Notes: a model not told the origin generated them from the sequence alone. Counted from the stretch's first letter, positions 11,375 through 33,797 are shown. The stretch: DNA of 64,000 bases from Thiohalospira sp. (GCA_046538755.1 JBKHIH010000008.1:15115-79114); one strand, 5' to 3'. A program made the numbers and translations.

Positions 11375-12286
11375 TTAAATTTTTATGATTTTAATCTGAT
11401 AATTTTTTTCTAGTCGATCTATCTGATCCTCACTTTTTGAAAAACCCAATAAAAATCCACCACCTCCTGCCCCACATAATTTAAGGTAAAATTTGTCTGA
11501 TTCTAATCCATATTTCCATGTGGTTTTGAATTCAGGCACAATCATTTCTTCAAAATGCCGGTATTGAAACATAGAAAGTTCTTTTAGAGAAGAAAAGAAA
11601 TTCCCAATATCTTTATTTCTTAAGAACTGAATACACTGATTATTCAAATGTAAAAATTCGGTTTTAATTATATTCTCAAATTCAGAATCCATGCATTTAT
11701 TAAGGAAAATATTCACAAAATGTTCTGTTGATCTTGCTTTTTGGGTATCAATTAAAAAGGGATGATAAATAGAAAAATCAGGATTATAAATTTGAACAGA
11801 GTTTCGTTTAACATAAAACCCTTTATTTAAATAGCTTACCAAAGGATCAAAGCCGGAGCTGTTTCCATGAAAATAAGATTCAATAAAGGCTAACGTATTT
11901 CTTAATGAAAGCCATTGATCTTTTCCCAGGTTATCAATTACTTTTTCGAAATAATTCGAAAAAATGGCTGCGGTTAAAGCACCGGAACTTCCTATGCCAT
12001 ATCCTTCAGGGATTGTAGAATTGAAAAACAATCCATTTTTAATATCCGTTTTAAACTGATTGATATTAAAAGAATGAAAAAAGGCGGAATCATTTTCAGC
12101 TTTTTCTAAATATGTAAAAAGCTGGTTTAAAACTTCATTGGATCTAATCTTAGGTTTTAAATCTTTCGAATGGCTATTAATAAAATCCAATTCTCCGGAA
12201 AATTGATTAAAAGGAATAACTAAAGCATCCGATTGATACAAAACGGCATACTCACCAAACAAAAGTATTTTAGCGTTAAATCTCAT
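11375..12286 (-). CDS. mvk: Mevalonate kinase (GHMP family)
   Basis: Motifs AKILLFGEYAV, PEGYGIGSSGAL, ESYFHGNSSGFD and KLCGAGGGGF. Confidence 0.85.
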   Translation of the reverse strand: MRFNAKILLFGEYAVLYQSDALVIPFNQFSGELDFINSHSKDLKPKIRSNEVLNQLFTYLEKAENDSAFFHSFNINQFKTDIKNGLFFNSTIPEGYGIGSSGALTAAIFSNYFEKVIDNLGKDQWLSLRNTLAFIESYFHGNSSGFDPLVSYLNKGFYVKRNSVQIYNPDFSIYHPFLIDTQKARSTEHFVNIFLNKCMDSEFENIIKTEFLHLNNQCIQFLRNKDIGNFFSSLKELSMFQYRHFEEMIVPEFKTTWKYGLESDKFYLKLCGAGGGGFLLGFSKSEDQIDRLEKNYQIKIIKI

Positions 12287-13392
12287 TCAAAAATTTGTTT
12301 TGGCCCATCTGAAATTTCATCATCGATCCATTCTCCATTTTCGCAAAATTGTATTAGCTCATTTTTAATAAAATTAACCATTTTAGCTTTTATTTTGTTC
12401 GGATACAGAATATGAACGTTTGGCCCGGCATCAAGGGTAATAGCAAAGTTAAGCCGGTTCTTTTGCCTGAATTCATTCAGTTTTTCAATAACAACTAATG
12501 TATCGGGTTTTATTAAAAATACCGAAGGATTCGAAGATAACATTAAAGCATGCAAGGTCATGGCTTCGTTTTCTACAATTTCGGCAAACAACTTCTCTCC
12601 GCCTGATTTTAGTGCTAATAGAATTTTTTCCAGGTTAACATTCGCCTGAAGATACCTTGCTTTTGCAAAAGGATGATTTTCCATGAGCACATGTCCTTTG
12701 GAACTTGAAGAAGCTTTTTGGCCCGAATCAATAATTAAAACCGCATTCCGGTAAGTTTTAAATATTTGATGCACCTGTTCATCAATTGGCATGGCGTATT
12801 CATCAGATGATTCAGGTACCGTTTCGGTTTTTCCCCACAAAACAGTTTTTCCGGAAACCGAGCGGGAGGCACTTCCTGAACCCAAACGTGCTAGAAAAGA
12901 AGCTTTTCTGTTAAATTTTTCCTTGCCGGAAAGTGTTTGAAACATTTCTTGTTCAATACTGCATAAACAATGTGCCAAAGCACTGAATGATGATGCAGAA
13001 GAAGCAATTCCTGCCGAATGTGGGAATGTATTGTGGCTGTAAATCGTAAAATCCAGATTATTAAGAAAAGGTAAATACACCGAAATCTTTTCAAAATAGC
13101 TTTTCACACGCTTTTCAAAAGGATAATTTCGTTTATCTTCAAAAAAATATTGAATATTAGATTCGCTGCTTTTTCTTTTTTGATAAATGATTTTGGTTAC
13201 TGTTTTCGAATTCTTCAAATTAAAACTCAACGACGGATTCTGTGGCAATTGATCACCTTTCTTTCCCCAGTATTTAATCAAAGCAATATTTGACGGACTC
13301 TCCCAACGCACAACTTTACTGCCCTTCATATCAAAATGATGTAATTGGGCCGCATCTTTTTTGTATTGATCAGAAATATAATGTTCGTTCAT
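12283..13392 (-). CDS. mvaD: Diphosphomevalonate decarboxylase
   Basis: Motifs SPSNIALIKYWGK, FPHSAGIASSAS, ARLGSGSASRS and TLDAGPNVH. Confidence 0.93.
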   Translation of the reverse strand: MNEHYISDQYKKDAAQLHHFDMKGSKVVRWESPSNIALIKYWGKKGDQLPQNPSLSFNLKNSKTVTKIIYQKRKSSESNIQYFFEDKRNYPFEKRVKSYFEKISVYLPFLNNLDFTIYSHNTFPHSAGIASSASSFSALAHCLCSIEQEMFQTLSGKEKFNRKASFLARLGSGSASRSVSGKTVLWGKTETVPESSDEYAMPIDEQVHQIFKTYRNAVLIIDSGQKASSSSKGHVLMENHPFAKARYLQANVNLEKILLALKSGGEKLFAEIVENEAMTLHALMLSSNPSVFLIKPDTLVVIEKLNEFRQKNRLNFAITLDAGPNVHILYPNKIKAKMVNFIKNELIQFCENGEWIDDEISDGPKQIFE

Positions 13393-21754: not shown

Positions 21755-21832
21755 ATGAGTTTACAATTTGTACATACCGTTCATCATCACCATCATCATG
21801 CTGGTAATTGCAACGTATGCAAATTTTTGTAG
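21755..21832 (+). CDS. His attenuator leader peptide 1 (MSLQFVHTVHHHHHHAGNCNVCKFL)
   Basis: Hand translation gives 25 aa with 7 His (6 consecutive) and an A-rich start context (AAAAATG). It is followed by a terminator and lies upstream of hisG. Confidence 0.9.
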   Translation: MSLQFVHTVHHHHHHAGNCNVCKFL

Positions 21833-21855: not shown

Positions 21856-21887
21856 AAAAGGGCTTGCAAATTTTGCAGGCCTTTTTT
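21856..21887 (+). terminator. His attenuator terminator 1
   Basis: AAAAG-GGCTTGCAA-ATT-TTGCAGGCC-TTTTTT. Confidence 0.85.
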
Positions 21888-21983: not shown

Positions 21984-22052
21984 ATGAACCAAAAACATCA
22001 TCATATCCATCATCATTCGAGTGAAAAACACACCCGGCGGAAGATACTATGA
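21984..22052 (+). CDS. His attenuator leader peptide 2 (MNQKHHHIHHHSSEKHTRRKIL)
   Basis: 22 aa with 7 His (HHHIHHH plus one more), followed by a second terminator just upstream of hisG. Confidence 0.88.
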   Translation: MNQKHHHIHHHSSEKHTRRKIL

Positions 22053-22081: not shown

Positions 22082-22112
22082 AAAGGTCTGCAGTTCTCTG
22101 CAGGCCTTTTTT
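22082..22112 (+). terminator. His attenuator terminator 2
   Basis: AAAGGTCTGCAG-TTCT-CTGCAGGCCTTTTTT, ending 23 nt before the hisG ATG. Confidence 0.88.
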
Positions 22113-22135
22113 ATTTAACATAAATAATAAAGAAA

Positions 22136-28885: not shown

Positions 28886-29473
28886 ATGAATTTAAATTTT
28901 AACAAATTAAACGGGCTTGTACCAGCCATCATTCAGAATTATAATACAAAAGAAGTATTAATGCTCGGGTTTATGAACCGGGAAGCCTACGAAAAAACTA
29001 TAGAAAAAAAACTGGTTACCTTTTACAGCCGTACTCGTAACGAATTGTGGACCAAAGGCGAAACCAGCGGCAATTATCTAAACGTAAAAGAAATTATAAC
29101 AGATTGTGATAATGATACTTTACTGATTTTAGCTGAACCTACAGGACCGGTATGCCATACTGGAAGTAAAACCTGCTTTGCAAATCAAAATGTAAGCTTT
29201 GATTTAAATTATTTGCAGCAGGTAATCGATAAGCGTAAAATGGAAATGCCCGAAGGCTCTTATACAACCAAATTATTTACCAAAGGGATTAACAAAATTG
29301 CACAAAAAGTAGGCGAAGAAGCTGTGGAATTAATCATCGAAGCAAAAGATAACAATGACGAATTATTCCTGAACGAAGCCGCAGATTTGGTTTATCATCT
29401 GTTGGTTTTATTATCAGCGAAAGGTTTTAAACTAAATGATGTAATACAAATTTTAGAAAAAAGACACAAATAA
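28886..29473 (+). CDS. hisI: Bifunctional phosphoribosyl-AMP cyclohydrolase / phosphoribosyl-ATP pyrophosphatase (HisIE)
   Basis: Motifs LWTKGETSGN, DCDND, GPVCHTG, SYT and KVGEEAVE, EAADL. Confidence 0.97.
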   Translation: MNLNFNKLNGLVPAIIQNYNTKEVLMLGFMNREAYEKTIEKKLVTFYSRTRNELWTKGETSGNYLNVKEIITDCDNDTLLILAEPTGPVCHTGSKTCFANQNVSFDLNYLQQVIDKRKMEMPEGSYTTKLFTKGINKIAQKVGEEAVELIIEAKDNNDELFLNEAADLVYHLLVLLSAKGFKLNDVIQILEKRHK

Positions 29474-29482
29474 ATATATCTT

Positions 29483-29515
29483 CTTGTCTTATTTTTAAAA
29501 ATATTTCTATATTTG
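29483..29515 (+). promoter_or_regulatory. Putative Bacteroidota primary-sigma promoter of the Phe/Tyr leader
   Basis: CTTG (29483-29486), a 21-nt spacer, then TATATTTG (29508-29515), an exact TAnnTTTG match. Confidence 0.65.
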
Positions 29516-29534
29516 TCAAATATAAAGTCAAAAA

Positions 29535-29588
29535 ATGAGCAAACAATTTTCTGCATACTATTATTTCTACTTTTATTTTTTACAATAA
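29535..29588 (+). CDS. Tyr/Phe attenuator leader peptide 1 (MSKQFSAYYYFYFYFLQ)
   Basis: 17 aa with 8 consecutive Tyr/Phe codons. GGCAGGA (29590-29596) is complementary to the terminator 5' arm TCCTGCC (29635-29641). Confidence 0.9.
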   Translation: MSKQFSAYYYFYFYFLQ

Positions 29589-29629
29589 AGGCAGGATAAT
29601 TATGTAGATTATTAAAAAAAATATTACAG

Positions 29630-29659
29630 AAAGGTCCTGCCGCAAGCAGGGCCTTTTTT
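29630..29659 (+). terminator. Tyr/Phe attenuator terminator 1
   Basis: AAAGGTCCTGC-CGCAA-GCAGGGCCTTTTTT. Confidence 0.88.
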
Positions 29660-29677
29660 ATTTAAATTGATTCAGTA

Positions 29678-29767
29678 ATGAAATTACAAAGCATCGAGAC
29701 TAACGCATATTTTTTCTTTTACTATTATTATTTCCATAATAGGCCGGGACAGCTATGTTTAAACTGA
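29678..29767 (+). CDS. Tyr/Phe attenuator leader peptide 2 (MKLQSIETNAYFFFYYYYFHNRPGQLCLN)
   Basis: 29 aa with 9 consecutive Tyr/Phe codons. CCGGGAC (29744-29750) is complementary to the terminator arm GTCCCGG (29795-29801). Confidence 0.9.
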   Translation: MKLQSIETNAYFFFYYYYFHNRPGQLCLN

Positions 29768-29790
29768 AAGTATAAAAACAATTAATAACC

Positions 29791-29823
29791 AAGCGTCCCG
29801 GGAAATTTCGAGGCGCTTTTTTT
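29791..29823 (+). terminator. Tyr/Phe attenuator terminator 2
   Basis: AAGCGTCCCGGG-AAAT-TTCGAGGCGCTTTTTTT (one C-A mismatch plus G-U pairs), ending 12 nt before the pheA ATG. Confidence 0.8.
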
Positions 29824-29835
29824 ATTTAATACGCT

Positions 29836-30705
29836 ATGAAAATTAGTATACAAGGAATAAAAGGCTCTTTTCACGAAGAAGCAGCAAGAAATTATTTTAT
29901 ACATGACATAACAATAGTCCCCAATATTACTTTCAACGATGTAATAACCTCAGTTATTAGCGGAGAATCTGATCTCGGAATTGTAGCCATTGAGAATACG
30001 CTTTCTGGAACCATCCATTCCAACCTCAATTTAATCAGACAATCCGGATTAAAAATAACAGGCGAAGAATACCTCTCCATTCATCAAAATCTCATTGCCC
30101 TTCCCGGAACCAAAATTGAGGATATTAAACAGGTTTTTTCCCATTACATGGCTATAAATCAATGCAGGAGTTTTTTTCAAAAATACCCTCAAATAAAACT
30201 TGTTGAGTCAGAAGATACTGCATTAAGTATTCGAACAATCGCTGATAAAAAGCTCAAAAACATTGCTGCCATTGGAAGTAAATTGGCTGCAGGCTACTAT
30301 AGAATGGATATTATTTCCCCAAATATAGAAACACACCAAAAAAATTATACCCGATTCTTAATTCTGGATAAAAAAATCAAAAAACAAAATTTCAACAAAG
30401 CTTCGTTAGCGTTTACCCTGCCCCACCGTAAAGGTAGTTTGGCTTATATTCTCAATATCATTGCTTTTAACGAAGTTAATCTGACAAAAATTGAATCTGT
30501 ACCCATTATTGGTGAACCATGGCATTATTTATTCTATATAGATGTTCAACTGAATGAAACGGAGCTTTACTTTCAAATGCTCCATACAATTAAAACCATA
30601 ACCGATAATCTGATAATTTTAGGCCAGTATGATTCAGGAATTCAATCGTTTAACCAAATACACAATTTACATTATGAAACCAGCAAACAGAATTGCAAAT
30701 CTTAA
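29836..30705 (+). CDS. pheA: Prephenate dehydratase with ACT domain
   Basis: Motifs QGIKGSFHE, AIENTLSG, SHYMAINQC, NYTRF and NLTKIES. Confidence 0.93.
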   Translation: MKISIQGIKGSFHEEAARNYFIHDITIVPNITFNDVITSVISGESDLGIVAIENTLSGTIHSNLNLIRQSGLKITGEEYLSIHQNLIALPGTKIEDIKQVFSHYMAINQCRSFFQKYPQIKLVESEDTALSIRTIADKKLKNIAAIGSKLAAGYYRMDIISPNIETHQKNYTRFLILDKKIKKQNFNKASLAFTLPHRKGSLAYILNIIAFNEVNLTKIESVPIIGEPWHYLFYIDVQLNETELYFQMLHTIKTITDNLIILGQYDSGIQSFNQIHNLHYETSKQNCKS

Positions 30706-31846
30706 TGCTTATTACTTTTCGAAAAAACTCGAAGAAGTAAGAAAGTTGCAAAACCAGGGAATGCATATAATTAACCTGGGAATCGGGAGTCCGGATTTGC
30801 CACCACATCCCGATGTTCTTAAAATACTGAACGAATCGGCACAATTGCCTGAAAATAATGGTTATCAACCCTATCGCGGACTAACAGAGTTGCGAAAAGC
30901 ATTTAGTGAATGGTACAAAAATATTTATCAGGTTGAGATAAATCCCGATACGCAAATTCTTCCTTTAATGGGTTCAAAAGAAGGTATCATGCATATCTCC
31001 ATGGCATTTTGTAATCCGGGAGACCGTGTTTTAATTCCAAATCCGGGCTATCCGGCATACACATCGGTATCAAAACTTTTAAATCTTGATATCCAATATT
31101 ATCAACTGACTGAAAAAAATCAGTGGTTGCCGGATTTCAACGAATTGGAAGAGCTATGCAACGATACCTGCAAAATAGTCTGGATAAACTATCCACACAT
31201 GCCAACCGGAAAAATTGCAACTACCGTTGAGCTTAAAAAGATAGCAGACTGGGCTAAATACCGAAATATAATGTTAGTAAATGATAATCCTTACAGTTTG
31301 ATATTAAATAATAAACCGGCAAGCATATTATCATTTTTAGATGACTATAATAATTTAATTGAGCTAAACTCATTGAGCAAATCGCACAATATGGCAGGCT
31401 GGCGTTTAGGCATGTTAGGCGTATCAGAAGAAAATATGAATCATATTTTAAAAGTAAAAACCAATTTCGATTCCGGCATGTACAAGCCTATCCAGTTGGC
31501 TGCAGCCAAAGCTTTAAGATTGGATAAAAAGTGGTATACAAAATTAAACAAGGAGTATTCGGAAAGGAGAAAGCTTGTATGGCAAATACTCGATAAGTTG
31601 GAATGTCAATATTCTATGGAAGGTGCCGGGTTGTTTGTATGGGCAAAAATACCTTATAGCTTTTCTAATTGCTATGAATTTGCTGATTACCTTTTATATA
31701 CAATAGGCATTTTTGCAGCTCCCGGACATATTTTTGGGGATAATGGCAGCAAATATATCCGATTTTCATTGTGTGCAAGCCAACAAACATTGGAACAGGC
31801 ACTTAATAGAGTTATTGAATTAAAACACAAAACATTATGCGAATAA
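30674..31846 (+). CDS. PLP-dependent class I/II aminotransferase (aromatic amino acid operon)
   Basis: Motifs INLGIGSPD, GSKEGIMH, NYPHMPTG, DNPY and NSLSKSHNMAGWR. Start moved from 30629 to MKPANR at 30674. Confidence 0.9.
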   Translation: MKPANRIANLNAYYFSKKLEEVRKLQNQGMHIINLGIGSPDLPPHPDVLKILNESAQLPENNGYQPYRGLTELRKAFSEWYKNIYQVEINPDTQILPLMGSKEGIMHISMAFCNPGDRVLIPNPGYPAYTSVSKLLNLDIQYYQLTEKNQWLPDFNELEELCNDTCKIVWINYPHMPTGKIATTVELKKIADWAKYRNIMLVNDNPYSLILNNKPASILSFLDDYNNLIELNSLSKSHNMAGWRLGMLGVSEENMNHILKVKTNFDSGMYKPIQLAAAKALRLDKKWYTKLNKEYSERRKLVWQILDKLECQYSMEGAGLFVWAKIPYSFSNCYEFADYLLYTIGIFAAPGHIFGDNGSKYIRFSLCASQQTLEQALNRVIELKHKTLCE

Positions 31847-32673
31847 GTATTATCGGTTTAGGCTTAATTGGTGGTTCAATGGCAATAGATTTGCGCAAAC
31901 GTGGTTTTGCAAAAAAAATCACAGGTGTTGAAACAAATCATTTGCATGCACATACAGCATTAAATATTGGACTGGTTGATGAGATTTTAGAATTAAATGA
32001 AGCGATAGAAAACTCCGATTTAATCATAATGGCTATTCCGGCCAATGAAACCATCAACTTATTACCAAAAATACTCGATCAGGTTGATTATCAGATCGTA
32101 ACTGATACCTGCTCTATTAAAGGGAATATTAGCGAGAGAATTAGATATCATAATAAAAGAGCAAACTATGTGGCATCGCATCCTATGGCAGGGACAGAGC
32201 ATTCAGGACCATGGGCTGCACAGCCAGGATTATTCGACGGAAAGGCTATCATCTTTTGTGATGCTGAAGACAGCAGTGAACATGCTTTATCAACCATAAA
32301 AAAAATGTACGAATACCTGAATATGCGCCCATTGTATATGAATGCATATAATCATGATGTACATGTCGCTTATGTTTCACATATATCTCATATCAGCTCT
32401 TTTGCTTTGGCTTTAACAGTTTTAGACAAAGAGAAGAATGAAAAAAATATTTTCAACCTTGCAAGTGGAGGCTTCGATTCAACTGTGCGCCTTGCAAAAA
32501 GCTCTGCAGATATGTGGTCTAGCATCTTTGAAAATAATGCAGAAAATGTAATTTCTGTATTAGATACCTACATTGAAAAACTGAATGATTTTAAAAAGGC
32601 TATCAATGAAAGTAATACAAACAAAATGAACGAATTGATTAATAAAGCAAACCATATAAAAAAGATTTTATGA
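31837..32673 (+). CDS. tyrA: Prephenate dehydrogenase
   Basis: Rossmann motif IIGLGLIGGS, plus HPMAGTE, HD...AYVSHISH and STVRLA. Confidence 0.94.
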   Translation: MRISIIGLGLIGGSMAIDLRKRGFAKKITGVETNHLHAHTALNIGLVDEILELNEAIENSDLIIMAIPANETINLLPKILDQVDYQIVTDTCSIKGNISERIRYHNKRANYVASHPMAGTEHSGPWAAQPGLFDGKAIIFCDAEDSSEHALSTIKKMYEYLNMRPLYMNAYNHDVHVAYVSHISHISSFALALTVLDKEKNEKNIFNLASGGFDSTVRLAKSSADMWSSIFENNAENVISVLDTYIEKLNDFKKAINESNTNKMNELINKANHIKKIL

Positions 32674-33797
32674 TTATGGAATCAACAATAAAAATTAAGA
32701 AAATAAATGAATGGGATATTCGCAACCATGAGAAACCAATCATTATCTCAGGGCCTTGCAGTGCTGAAACAGAAGAACAGGTTATGCAAACAGCAAGAAA
32801 ATTAAGAGATAATGGCGTAACAATTTTTAGAGCAGGAATATGGAAACCCAGAACCCGACCAAATTCATTCGAAGGAGTTGGATCTGCCGGACTGGAATGG
32901 CTTAAAAAGGTTAAAACAGAAACTGGAATGCTGGTTTCTACCGAAGTAGCCAATGTAAAACATGTTTATGAATCGTTAAAAACGGGAATTGATATCTTAT
33001 GGATTGGTGCAAGAACAACAGCTAACCCTTTTGCTATTCAGGAAATTGCCGATGCCCTTAAAGGATTAAATATTCCAATTCTGATAAAAAATCCTGTAAA
33101 TCCGGATGTTGAATTATGGCTTGGAGCAATTGAACGTTTTTTCAATGCAGGAATTACAAATATTGGAGCCATTCATCGCGGTTTTTCCAGTTTTGAAAAA
33201 AGCATTTACCGGAATATTCCCCAATGGCAAATTCCTATTGAATTAAAAACCAGAATTCCTGATATCCCGTTAATATGTGATCCAAGCCATATTGCAGGCA
33301 AAAGATCTTTGCTAAAAGAAATATCTCAAAAAGCGATGGACCTGAATTTTGATGGATTAATGATTGAGTCGCATATTGAGCCTTACAAAGCCTGGAGCGA
33401 TGCTAAACAACAGATTACACCCGAAGTTTTAAAGAATCTTTTAAATGATTTAATATACAAACAAGAAGCCCCCAAAGGGATATCTTATGAAACGCTTGAT
33501 GATTTGCGATTTAGAATTGATCAGTGCGATGATGAGATTCTGAAAATATTGGAAAAAAGAATGAAACTAGTGCACTCTATTGGTTTATACAAAAAAGATA
33601 ATAACATGACTATTTTGCAGCCCAACCGATGGGATAAAATTTTAAAAAGAAATGTTGATAAAGGTTTACAAAGAAAATTAAAGCCTGATTTTGTTACCAA
33701 AATCTTCAAAACAATCCATCAGGAATCAATAAATGAGCAAACCAAGATAATGAATTATAAAGTTGAGATTAAGGCTAAGGCTAAGGCTAAGAGTTAG
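32670..33797 (+). CDS. Bifunctional DAHP synthase (type I-beta) / chorismate mutase
   Basis: Motifs GPCSAE, WKPRTRP, WIGART and DPSH, followed by the AroQ-like LRFRIDQCD...KRM...IG.YKK. Confidence 0.93.
   Translation: MIMESTIKIKKINEWDIRNHEKPIIISGPCSAETEEQVMQTARKLRDNGVTIFRAGIWKPRTRPNSFEGVGSAGLEWLKKVKTETGMLVSTEVANVKHVYESLKTGIDILWIGARTTANPFAIQEIADALKGLNIPILIKNPVNPDVELWLGAIERFFNAGITNIGAIHRGFSSFEKSIYRNIPQWQIPIELKTRIPDIPLICDPSHIAGKRSLLKEISQKAMDLNFDGLMIESHIEPYKAWSDAKQQITPEVLKNLLNDLIYKQEAPKGISYETLDDLRFRIDQCDDEILKILEKRMKLVHSIGLYKKDNNMTILQPNRWDKILKRNVDKGLQRKLKPDFVTKIFKTIHQESINEQTKIMNYKVEIKAKAKAKS

Follow-up and report, generated by a model that had tools for sequence, protein, structure and literature searches.

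Some amino acid leaders of E. coli are multivalent, such as the thr leader with its Thr and Ile codons, or the ilvGMEDA and ilvBN leaders with codons for Leu, Val and Ile, and arrangements of regulatory RNAs in series, including tandem T-boxes and tandem riboswitches, also exist. A comparative study of attenuators by Vitreschak and colleagues from 2004 reportedly mentions the Bacteroidetes/Chlorobi, and attenuators of pheA from this phylum may be among those it lists. The E. coli pheL leader contains Phe codons only, according to the relevant passage of PMC3082878. For the Bacteroidota, the Bacteroid-trp motif (RF01692) is listed in Table 1 of PMC2864571, and the sections of PMC9723704 that deal with amino acid genes of Flavobacterium psychrophilum describe a structured 5' element that is conserved ahead of pheA and has no Rfam match, an unclassified element at hisG, and 'strong clues' for leader-peptide attenuation. 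Tandem attenuators, with two ORFs sensing different signals, are described for the Salmonella mgtCBR operon in the corresponding part of PMC3641672, and synthetic tandem attenuators appear in the relevant part of a preprint (bioRxiv 10.1101/003335). In the literature searched, without the supplements of PMC9723704 and PMC7366714, neither Tyr/Phe leaders nor amino acid leaders in tandem turned out to be described, and the full-text searches returned tandem attenuators only for Salmonella mgtCBR, erm leaders, and synthetic circuits. Gene regulation in the Bacteroidota is poorly charted, and Rfam, in which the Bacteroid-trp motif is present, holds neither a Bacteroidota phe leader family nor a model for a Tyr/Phe leader element.

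In this work, we analyzed the region 29483-29835 upstream of the pheA gene in the window, that is, the whole 64,000-nucleotide stretch of DNA under study, which comes from a genome in an uncultured genus of the order designated in public records as Bacteroidales. Comparative genomics and RNA folding indicate that this region very probably represents a pair of working ribosome-mediated attenuators arranged in series, in which Tyr and Phe codons alike are regulatory, as the original prediction made from the window sequence had proposed.

The region is flanked upstream by the histidine biosynthesis genes hisH, hisA, hisF, and hisIE (NCBIfam), which end at position 29473. The downstream operon (29836-33797, plus strand, as are the promoter box and the elements of both modules) includes the prephenate dehydratase gene pheA (29836-30705), an aminotransferase gene (30629-31846), the prephenate dehydrogenase gene tyrA (31837-32673), and a gene encoding fused DAHP synthase/chorismate mutase, DAHPS/CM (32670-33797); all four identities, as originally proposed, are upheld by NCBIfam. 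The elements that the original prediction listed for 29483-29835, namely a promoter box, two leaders and two terminators, with pheA following, are all present, and both leaders are indeed missing from the ORF track, being too short for a list of ORFs of 60 amino acids. The putative promoter box TATATTTG (29508-29515) matches TAnnTTTG, which we take to be the Bacteroidetes -7 consensus, and is located about 19 nt 5' of the leader 1 start codon ATG. A perfect TAnnTTTG occurs at a comparable distance in seven of the nine tandem loci of the genus that were compared, the present one counted, and with one mismatch in the remaining two. Taken alone, the box is weak evidence, since this motif has a frequency of 0.68 per kb in the window.

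The first module starts with the leader ORF encoding MSKQFSAYYYFYFYFLQ (29535-29588, including the stop codon), in which codons 8-15 constitute the regulatory run of five Tyr and three Phe codons; eight of the nine codons in its best window are aromatic, and an in-frame homologue was found in nine other loci of the genus. In minimum free energy folds, the leader codons pair with the segment of the antiterminator arm, forming a '1:2' protector hairpin at approximately 29548-29612. The antiterminator arm, which consists of GGCAGGA plus one nucleotide (29590-29597), begins 2 nt past the leader stop codon and has its partner at 29634-29641, with GGCAGGA at 29590-29596 being complementary to TCCTGCC at 29635-29641. 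The predicted intrinsic terminator 1 is a 13-bp stem (29628-29640 and 29646-29658) with the loop CGCAA and a T-run reaching 29659; it has a free energy of -19.4 kcal/mol in the extended fold and was detected by a consensus terminator scan.

The second module has a longer leader ORF encoding MKLQSIETNAYFFFYYYYFHNRPGQLCLN (29678-29767, including the stop codon), with a regulatory run of five Tyr and four Phe codons at positions 11-19 and a best window in which all nine codons are aromatic. This ORF spans the antiterminator arm, CCGGGAC followed by AGC across a bulge (29744-29754), which coincides with Pro-Gly-Gln codons. The complement of its CCGGGAC (29744-29750) is GTCCCGG at 29795-29801, so the perfect 7-bp complement claimed for each module can be located in the sequence. 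The proposed extension of the second antiterminator by the pair GCT/AGC was also seen in folds, but its columns pair in only three to five of ten sequences from the genus. The predicted intrinsic terminator 2 occupies 29793-29823, with the stem GCGTCCCGG...CGAGGCGC at 29793-29816 and seven T residues at 29817-29823.

Terminator 2 has an internal mismatch and a larger loop, folds at -8.8 (core) to -11.6 kcal/mol, and was not flagged by the consensus scan; its counterparts in nine relatives from the genus have free energies from -11.6 to -23.5 kcal/mol. The contigs assembled from three DNA runs show no differences at this locus, terminator 2 being spanned only by the contig from the probable source run. 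Because the terminator is weak, was missed by the scan, and is covered by the probable source assembly only, module 2 may be leaky in this genome, or the mismatch may represent an assembly error.

The two modules are closely spaced, with 18 nt between the end of the terminator 1 T-run (29659) and the leader 2 ATG (29678); the gap is similarly short in nine relatives, down to a few nucleotides in L010. Such a gap would leave no room for a second promoter, which makes one unlikely between the modules, and leader 2 would thus be read from transcripts that have passed terminator 1. The spacing therefore speaks for the predicted arrangement of the two attenuators in series.

We propose that a single transcript would start near 29522 and carry both attenuators, each containing a short ORF with eight or nine mixed Tyr and Phe codons. 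A shortage of charged tRNA-Tyr or tRNA-Phe would make the ribosome stall within the run, leaving free a segment about 13 nt downstream that would pair with the 5' arm of the terminator and allow RNA polymerase to read through. When both amino acids are ample, the ribosome would advance and cover the antiterminator arm, which is located just beyond the stop codon in module 1 and within the Pro-Gly codons in module 2, and the terminator would form. The pathway would in this way be switched on only upon shortage of either amino acid. Since either amino acid alone could stall the ribosome, each module would operate as an OR gate, and since a full-length operon mRNA would require read-through at both modules, their read-through probabilities would multiply. 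By analogy with tandem riboswitches and synthetic tandem attenuators, this multiplication should lower the basal expression and steepen the response. The parts, their conservation, complementarity and spacing, and the link of Tyr codons to operon content emerge from computation, while the dependence on amino acids, the OR logic, and any advantage of having two stages are what we infer for this operon, whose control might, as originally proposed, do without a protein regulator. The original prediction extended this control to the whole aromatic branch; the trp operon, however, has two Trp leaders of its own.

To evaluate the antiterminators, the segment following the codon run was tested for pairing with the 5' arm of its terminator. 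Of the 147 modules, 144 were covered (three were too short), with 100 dinucleotide shuffles for each. The best duplex beats at least 95 of the 100 shuffles in 78% of the modules and at least 99 in 53%, with a median z-score of -2.97, and it starts at a median of 13 nt past the last aromatic codon (10th-90th percentile, 9-17.7). This spacing corresponds to a ribosome footprint, as a ribosome stalled on the run would just spare the arm. For the two modules of the window, the z-scores are -2.9 and -4.06, and none of the 100 shuffles in either case was equally good.

The transcripts of the window were further folded with their ends at the terminator loop and with a 30-nt ribosome footprint, which reproduced in both modules the switch expected from the original prediction. 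Antiterminator 1 forms as long as the ribosomal A site is within codons 8-14 (YYYFYFY), and a ribosome whose A site is at codons 16-18 masks it. For antiterminator 2, the permissive A-site positions are codons 11-18 (YFFFYYYY), and the structure is lost from codon 20 onward, because the Pro-Gly codons are the arm itself; once the ribosome is at the stop codon of leader 2, however, 6 bp of this antiterminator can pair again. In the equilibrium fold of the full-length RNA, terminator 1 always beats its 7-8-bp antiterminator, and the model therefore needs kinetic, co-transcriptional folding, as in classical attenuators. The protector hairpin of module 1 has a free energy of -16.9 kcal/mol, with a duplex shuffle p-value of 0.08 in the window and of 0.00-0.02 in two relatives (L003 and L004), whereas the same test did not support a 1:2 protector in module 2 (p=0.77); of 143 modules from the order, 38% reached p<=0.05 for the 1:2 pairing. 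As judged from these folds, module 1 appears to resemble the four-segment form of an attenuator and module 2 the three-segment form, and the latter module, having no supported protector, would default to read-through when untranslated.

The terminator arms vary by lineage and the antiterminator follows, as seen in GGCAGGA/TCCTGCC of the window versus GCGGG/CCCGC in L010. In an alignment of ten sequences from the genus, changes on both sides occur in nine terminator and nine antiterminator pairs, levels that were reached in 0 of 500 and 1 of 500 shuffles, respectively. The covariation anticipated among homologous leaders thus extends beyond shuffles, but its support is modest, given the relatedness of the sequences and a MAFFT alignment that is not in register throughout. 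The RNAalifold consensus of the ten sequences retains CCGGGA:UCCCGG in module 2; for module 1, the MAFFT alignment yielded only -4.9, owing to rows in which terminator 1 is shifted out of register.

The pheA gene was found in 11 of 37 genomes from the genus; for the order, 301 genomes were sampled and 131 of them had it. We examined 140 pheA loci (L002-L018, L020, and L050-L171), leaving out a duplicate of the window's own locus (L001), a contig-end fragment (L019), and the loci of another collection that was handled apart (L021-L049). Four loci, including L016, had no upstream sequence, and among the 136 analysable ones an aromatic leader with a terminator precedes pheA in 118, with one module in 89 loci, two in 29, and none in 18; the genomes compared are related, and these counts are therefore non-independent. 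The Tyr/Phe runs are conserved in frame across these 118 loci, as would be expected if they were more than T-rich sequence. The locus of the window had been treated as singular, which does not hold, as a mixed Tyr/Phe leader is the norm at the pheA loci of this order.

Tandem modules were identified in 10 of the 11 pheA-containing genomes of the genus, and these 10 retain both leaders, both terminators, and the antiterminator complements at pheA identities down to 51%, with the leaders at nearly fixed positions of about -300 and -160 relative to pheA. Outside of the genus, tandems occur in 19 loci from 14 further families. The sequence differences among their leaders and terminators suggest that the tandem state may have arisen several times. 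Two leaders are also present in metagenome-assembled genomes labelled as Flavobacteriales (L029 and L032), Saprospiraceae (L034), and another member of the Bacteroidales (L036). Outside of the above counts, two aromatic leader ORFs are situated upstream of the N-terminal fragment of a split pheA gene at a contig end in genome G028 (L019), which may be an additional tandem case.

The codon content of the leaders varies with the genes that follow. For 10 loci, pheA is alone, without the aminotransferase, tyrA or DAHPS/CM gene in at least 4 kb examined downstream; three of them carry a module, with a Tyr fraction of 0-0.12, and the other seven have no detectable module. The 112 operon-linked loci with modules have Tyr fractions of 0.20-0.68, all above those of the pheA-alone loci (Mann-Whitney p=0.0016, uncorrected for kinship). 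The pheA-alone leaders are almost pure Phe (L110, L137, and L147, also L015 and the ORF of L149), for example MITINNSFFFFFFRSDPEKGL. Leader composition thus tracks operon content and supports the predicted sensing of Tyr and Phe, which fits the operon because it makes both amino acids. A single Trp codon is found in some leaders, at 23 loci, including leader 2 of five loci from the genus.

The C-terminal tail of leader 2 is also conserved, reading PGxxCxN in nine loci of the genus and PGSCMQ in L010. Synonymous changes occur in this tail within the genus (TGT/TGC and AAC/AAT), and all three stop codons are used. Among the leaders with long tails, 42 of 96 from various families have a Cys within the last four residues (e.g. 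L090, L099, L111, L118, and L142). The tail Cys codon lies inside a recurrent nucleotide motif, TATG/TGTATG, just 3' of the antiterminator arm (tail at 29753-29767 in the window). This motif is possibly an RNA pairing element, for which (A/G)CAUA in Thr/Ala-Tyr codons is one potential partner, or else a feature of the peptide; inspection by eye gave no partner with which the invariant TATG of this tail could pair in all members of the genus.

The window has a G+C content of 34%, which makes aromatic codons, being TTT, TAT, TTC, and TAC words, cheap. A scan of the whole 3.73-Mb genome detected 75 short ORFs with at least six F/Y/W residues in seven, only four of which have a terminator at a distance of up to 170 nt. 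Two of these four are the adjacent pheA leaders 1 and 2, and the arrangement of leader and terminator before pheA is thus more than chance. The other two are located on contigs C124 and C57; the C124 candidate was rejected as being antisense within a coding region. Applied to control upstream regions, the module detector returned none of 43 hisG regions and two of 30 trpE regions, both being Trp leaders that were picked up because the detector counts Trp as aromatic. None of the 13 pheA loci from outside the Bacteroidota had an aromatic-leader module. In Rfam, the two modules show weak but specific matches to Phe_leader (RF01859; 25.5 and 24.7 bits), below its gathering threshold of 55, and this is the only pathway-relevant match of both modules; no Rfam family reached its threshold anywhere in the window.

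These observations bear on three other explanations of the region. The ORFs could be chance products of T-rich intergenic DNA, with the hairpins serving as ordinary terminators or as parts of another riboregulator, such as a riboswitch, a T-box or a protein-binding leader. The low G+C content of the window and the 75 aromatic-rich short ORFs in the genome make this conceivable, yet the frame and the start codon are conserved in the 118 loci mentioned above, spanning many families, the control regions are devoid of Tyr/Phe modules, Rfam has no family at threshold, codon composition follows operon content, and the antiterminator is at a fixed spacing from the codon run. Such an origin is already contradicted by the comparative sequence data, and we regard it as hardly credible. 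Action in trans of the terminated leader RNAs or of the peptides, as small RNAs or small peptides, is compatible with attenuation and would explain part of the conservation, for example that of PGxxCxN. A precedent comes from Sinorhizobium, where the RNA and the peptide of a trp attenuator act in trans, and such a role agrees with the synonymous changes in the tail and with the frequent terminal Cys. The Pro-Gly codons, however, are the antiterminator arm itself, and the Cys codon is part of a motif that may be structural, which leaves a role in trans very improbable.

The remaining alternative is that only one module is the working sensor. The other would then be a duplicate that is redundant or in decay, or would chiefly shield the pheA operon against transcription arriving from the adjacent his operon. 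The consensus scan predicted no terminator between the end of hisIE and leader 1 (29474-29534), so transcripts reading through from the his genes would meet leader 1 and terminator 1 first, and this terminator may also stop his transcripts. Terminator 2 is weaker here than in relatives, and a single module suffices at most loci of the order (89 of 136). The synteny of hisIE with the leaders is shared only by L003 and L004. On the other hand, the tandem is kept in loci of the genus where the upstream sequence is unrelated to hisIE. Both modules with all their parts have been retained in 10 of 11 genomes of the genus despite the divergence of pheA, and each of the two in the window passed the shuffle test with no shuffle as good. 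A single sensor is therefore unlikely, and we favor two working attenuators in series.

Doubled leaders were also identified upstream of other amino acid operons in this genus. In the genome-wide scan, two His leaders were found in tandem upstream of hisG (22136) within the window: MSLQFVHTVHHHHHHAGNCNVCKFL (21755-21832), followed by a hairpin and T-run at about 21860-21887, and MNQKHHHIHHHSSEKHTRRKIL (21984-22052), followed by a hairpin and T-run at about 22086-22113. Two His leader ORFs are present in this genome and in all eight his loci of the genus, and in none of 35 loci from other families (31 with a single leader, four with none), which include 17 genomes with a tandem pheA leader. Similarly, the trpE-G-D-C-F-B-A operon on contig C95 of the same genome (L216) is preceded by two Trp leaders in tandem, MIEKNINWWWFIYNSKKS (...NWWWF...) and MNLRINTKFWWWHMLIRNKL (...FWWWH...), each with a terminator, at about 12280-12545. 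Two WWW leaders were found in this genome and in all four loci of the genus with enough upstream sequence, and in none of 25 loci elsewhere (14 with a single leader, 11 with none). In this genome, the simple antiterminator duplex test was non-significant for the leaders of his and trp (p 0.34-0.75), and folding gave weak alternatives only; the reading of these pairs as attenuators rests on the combination of leader, terminator, and conservation.

We tentatively suggest that this uncultured Bacteroidales genus might double its attenuators genome-wide, in all three leader-controlled operons detected (his, trp, and phe/tyr), for a cause acting at the level of the lineage, a scenario that we consider possible but less than likely. 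In these bacteria, which lack Shine-Dalgarno sequences, intrinsic terminators might leak or translation might be only loosely coupled to transcription. If this scenario is true, one attenuator would be insufficient in these bacteria, and two-stage multiplicative attenuation would be a general design solution. Other operons of this kind were searched for in the genome, which is rated 99.75% complete: leuA had only weak partial NCBIfam matches, ilvB (acetolactate synthase) had none, and thrC is located at a contig end without a classical thr operon. The failure to find leuA and ilvB in this genome, together with the detection of pheA in no more than 11 of the 37 genus genomes, suggests patchy amino acid prototrophy in the lineage.

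These leaders are widespread before pheA in the order. Their codon content may serve to label the operon product, and this label can be useful for the annotation of operons and for predicting the auxotrophy responses of Bacteroidales that are uncultured or live in the gut. The tandem arrangement, which is found before pheA in at least 15 families and, in one genus, also before the his and trp operons, provides a natural test bed for how the dose-response is affected when one RNA switch is followed by an identical second one. A further question that arises is why one lineage has doubled all its attenuators.

In comparison with known systems, the mechanism proposed here is textbook leader-peptide attenuation. 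The closest counterpart is the E. coli pheA attenuator (pheL, RF01859), which likewise has a leader ORF with regulatory codons and an antiterminator/terminator switch controlling prephenate dehydratase; in contrast to pheL, the region described here has mixed Tyr and Phe codons, two modules, and an operon that also includes tyrA and DAHPS/CM. In sensing several products of a shared pathway by mixed codon runs, it resembles the thr and ilv leaders, which respond to other amino acids in another phylum. The Bacteroid-trp motif and the F. psychrophilum elements are, in the portions of their descriptions considered here, leader-type cis-regulators before amino acid operons of Bacteroidota; these portions give no Tyr/Phe codon content or tandem arrangement, and the supplement of PMC9723704 may overlap with the present results. 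What appears to be new relative to the literature found is a near-universal class of Tyr and Phe leaders before pheA in the order, the recurrence of the tandem, and a genus with its his, trp, and phe/tyr leaders doubled. Like other tandem cis-regulators, the pheA region would place two termination switches in series on one leader, which would provide multiplicative control; whereas the two ORFs of mgtCBR sense different signals, both modules here carry the same Tyr/Phe signal, in a genus that also doubles its his and trp leaders.
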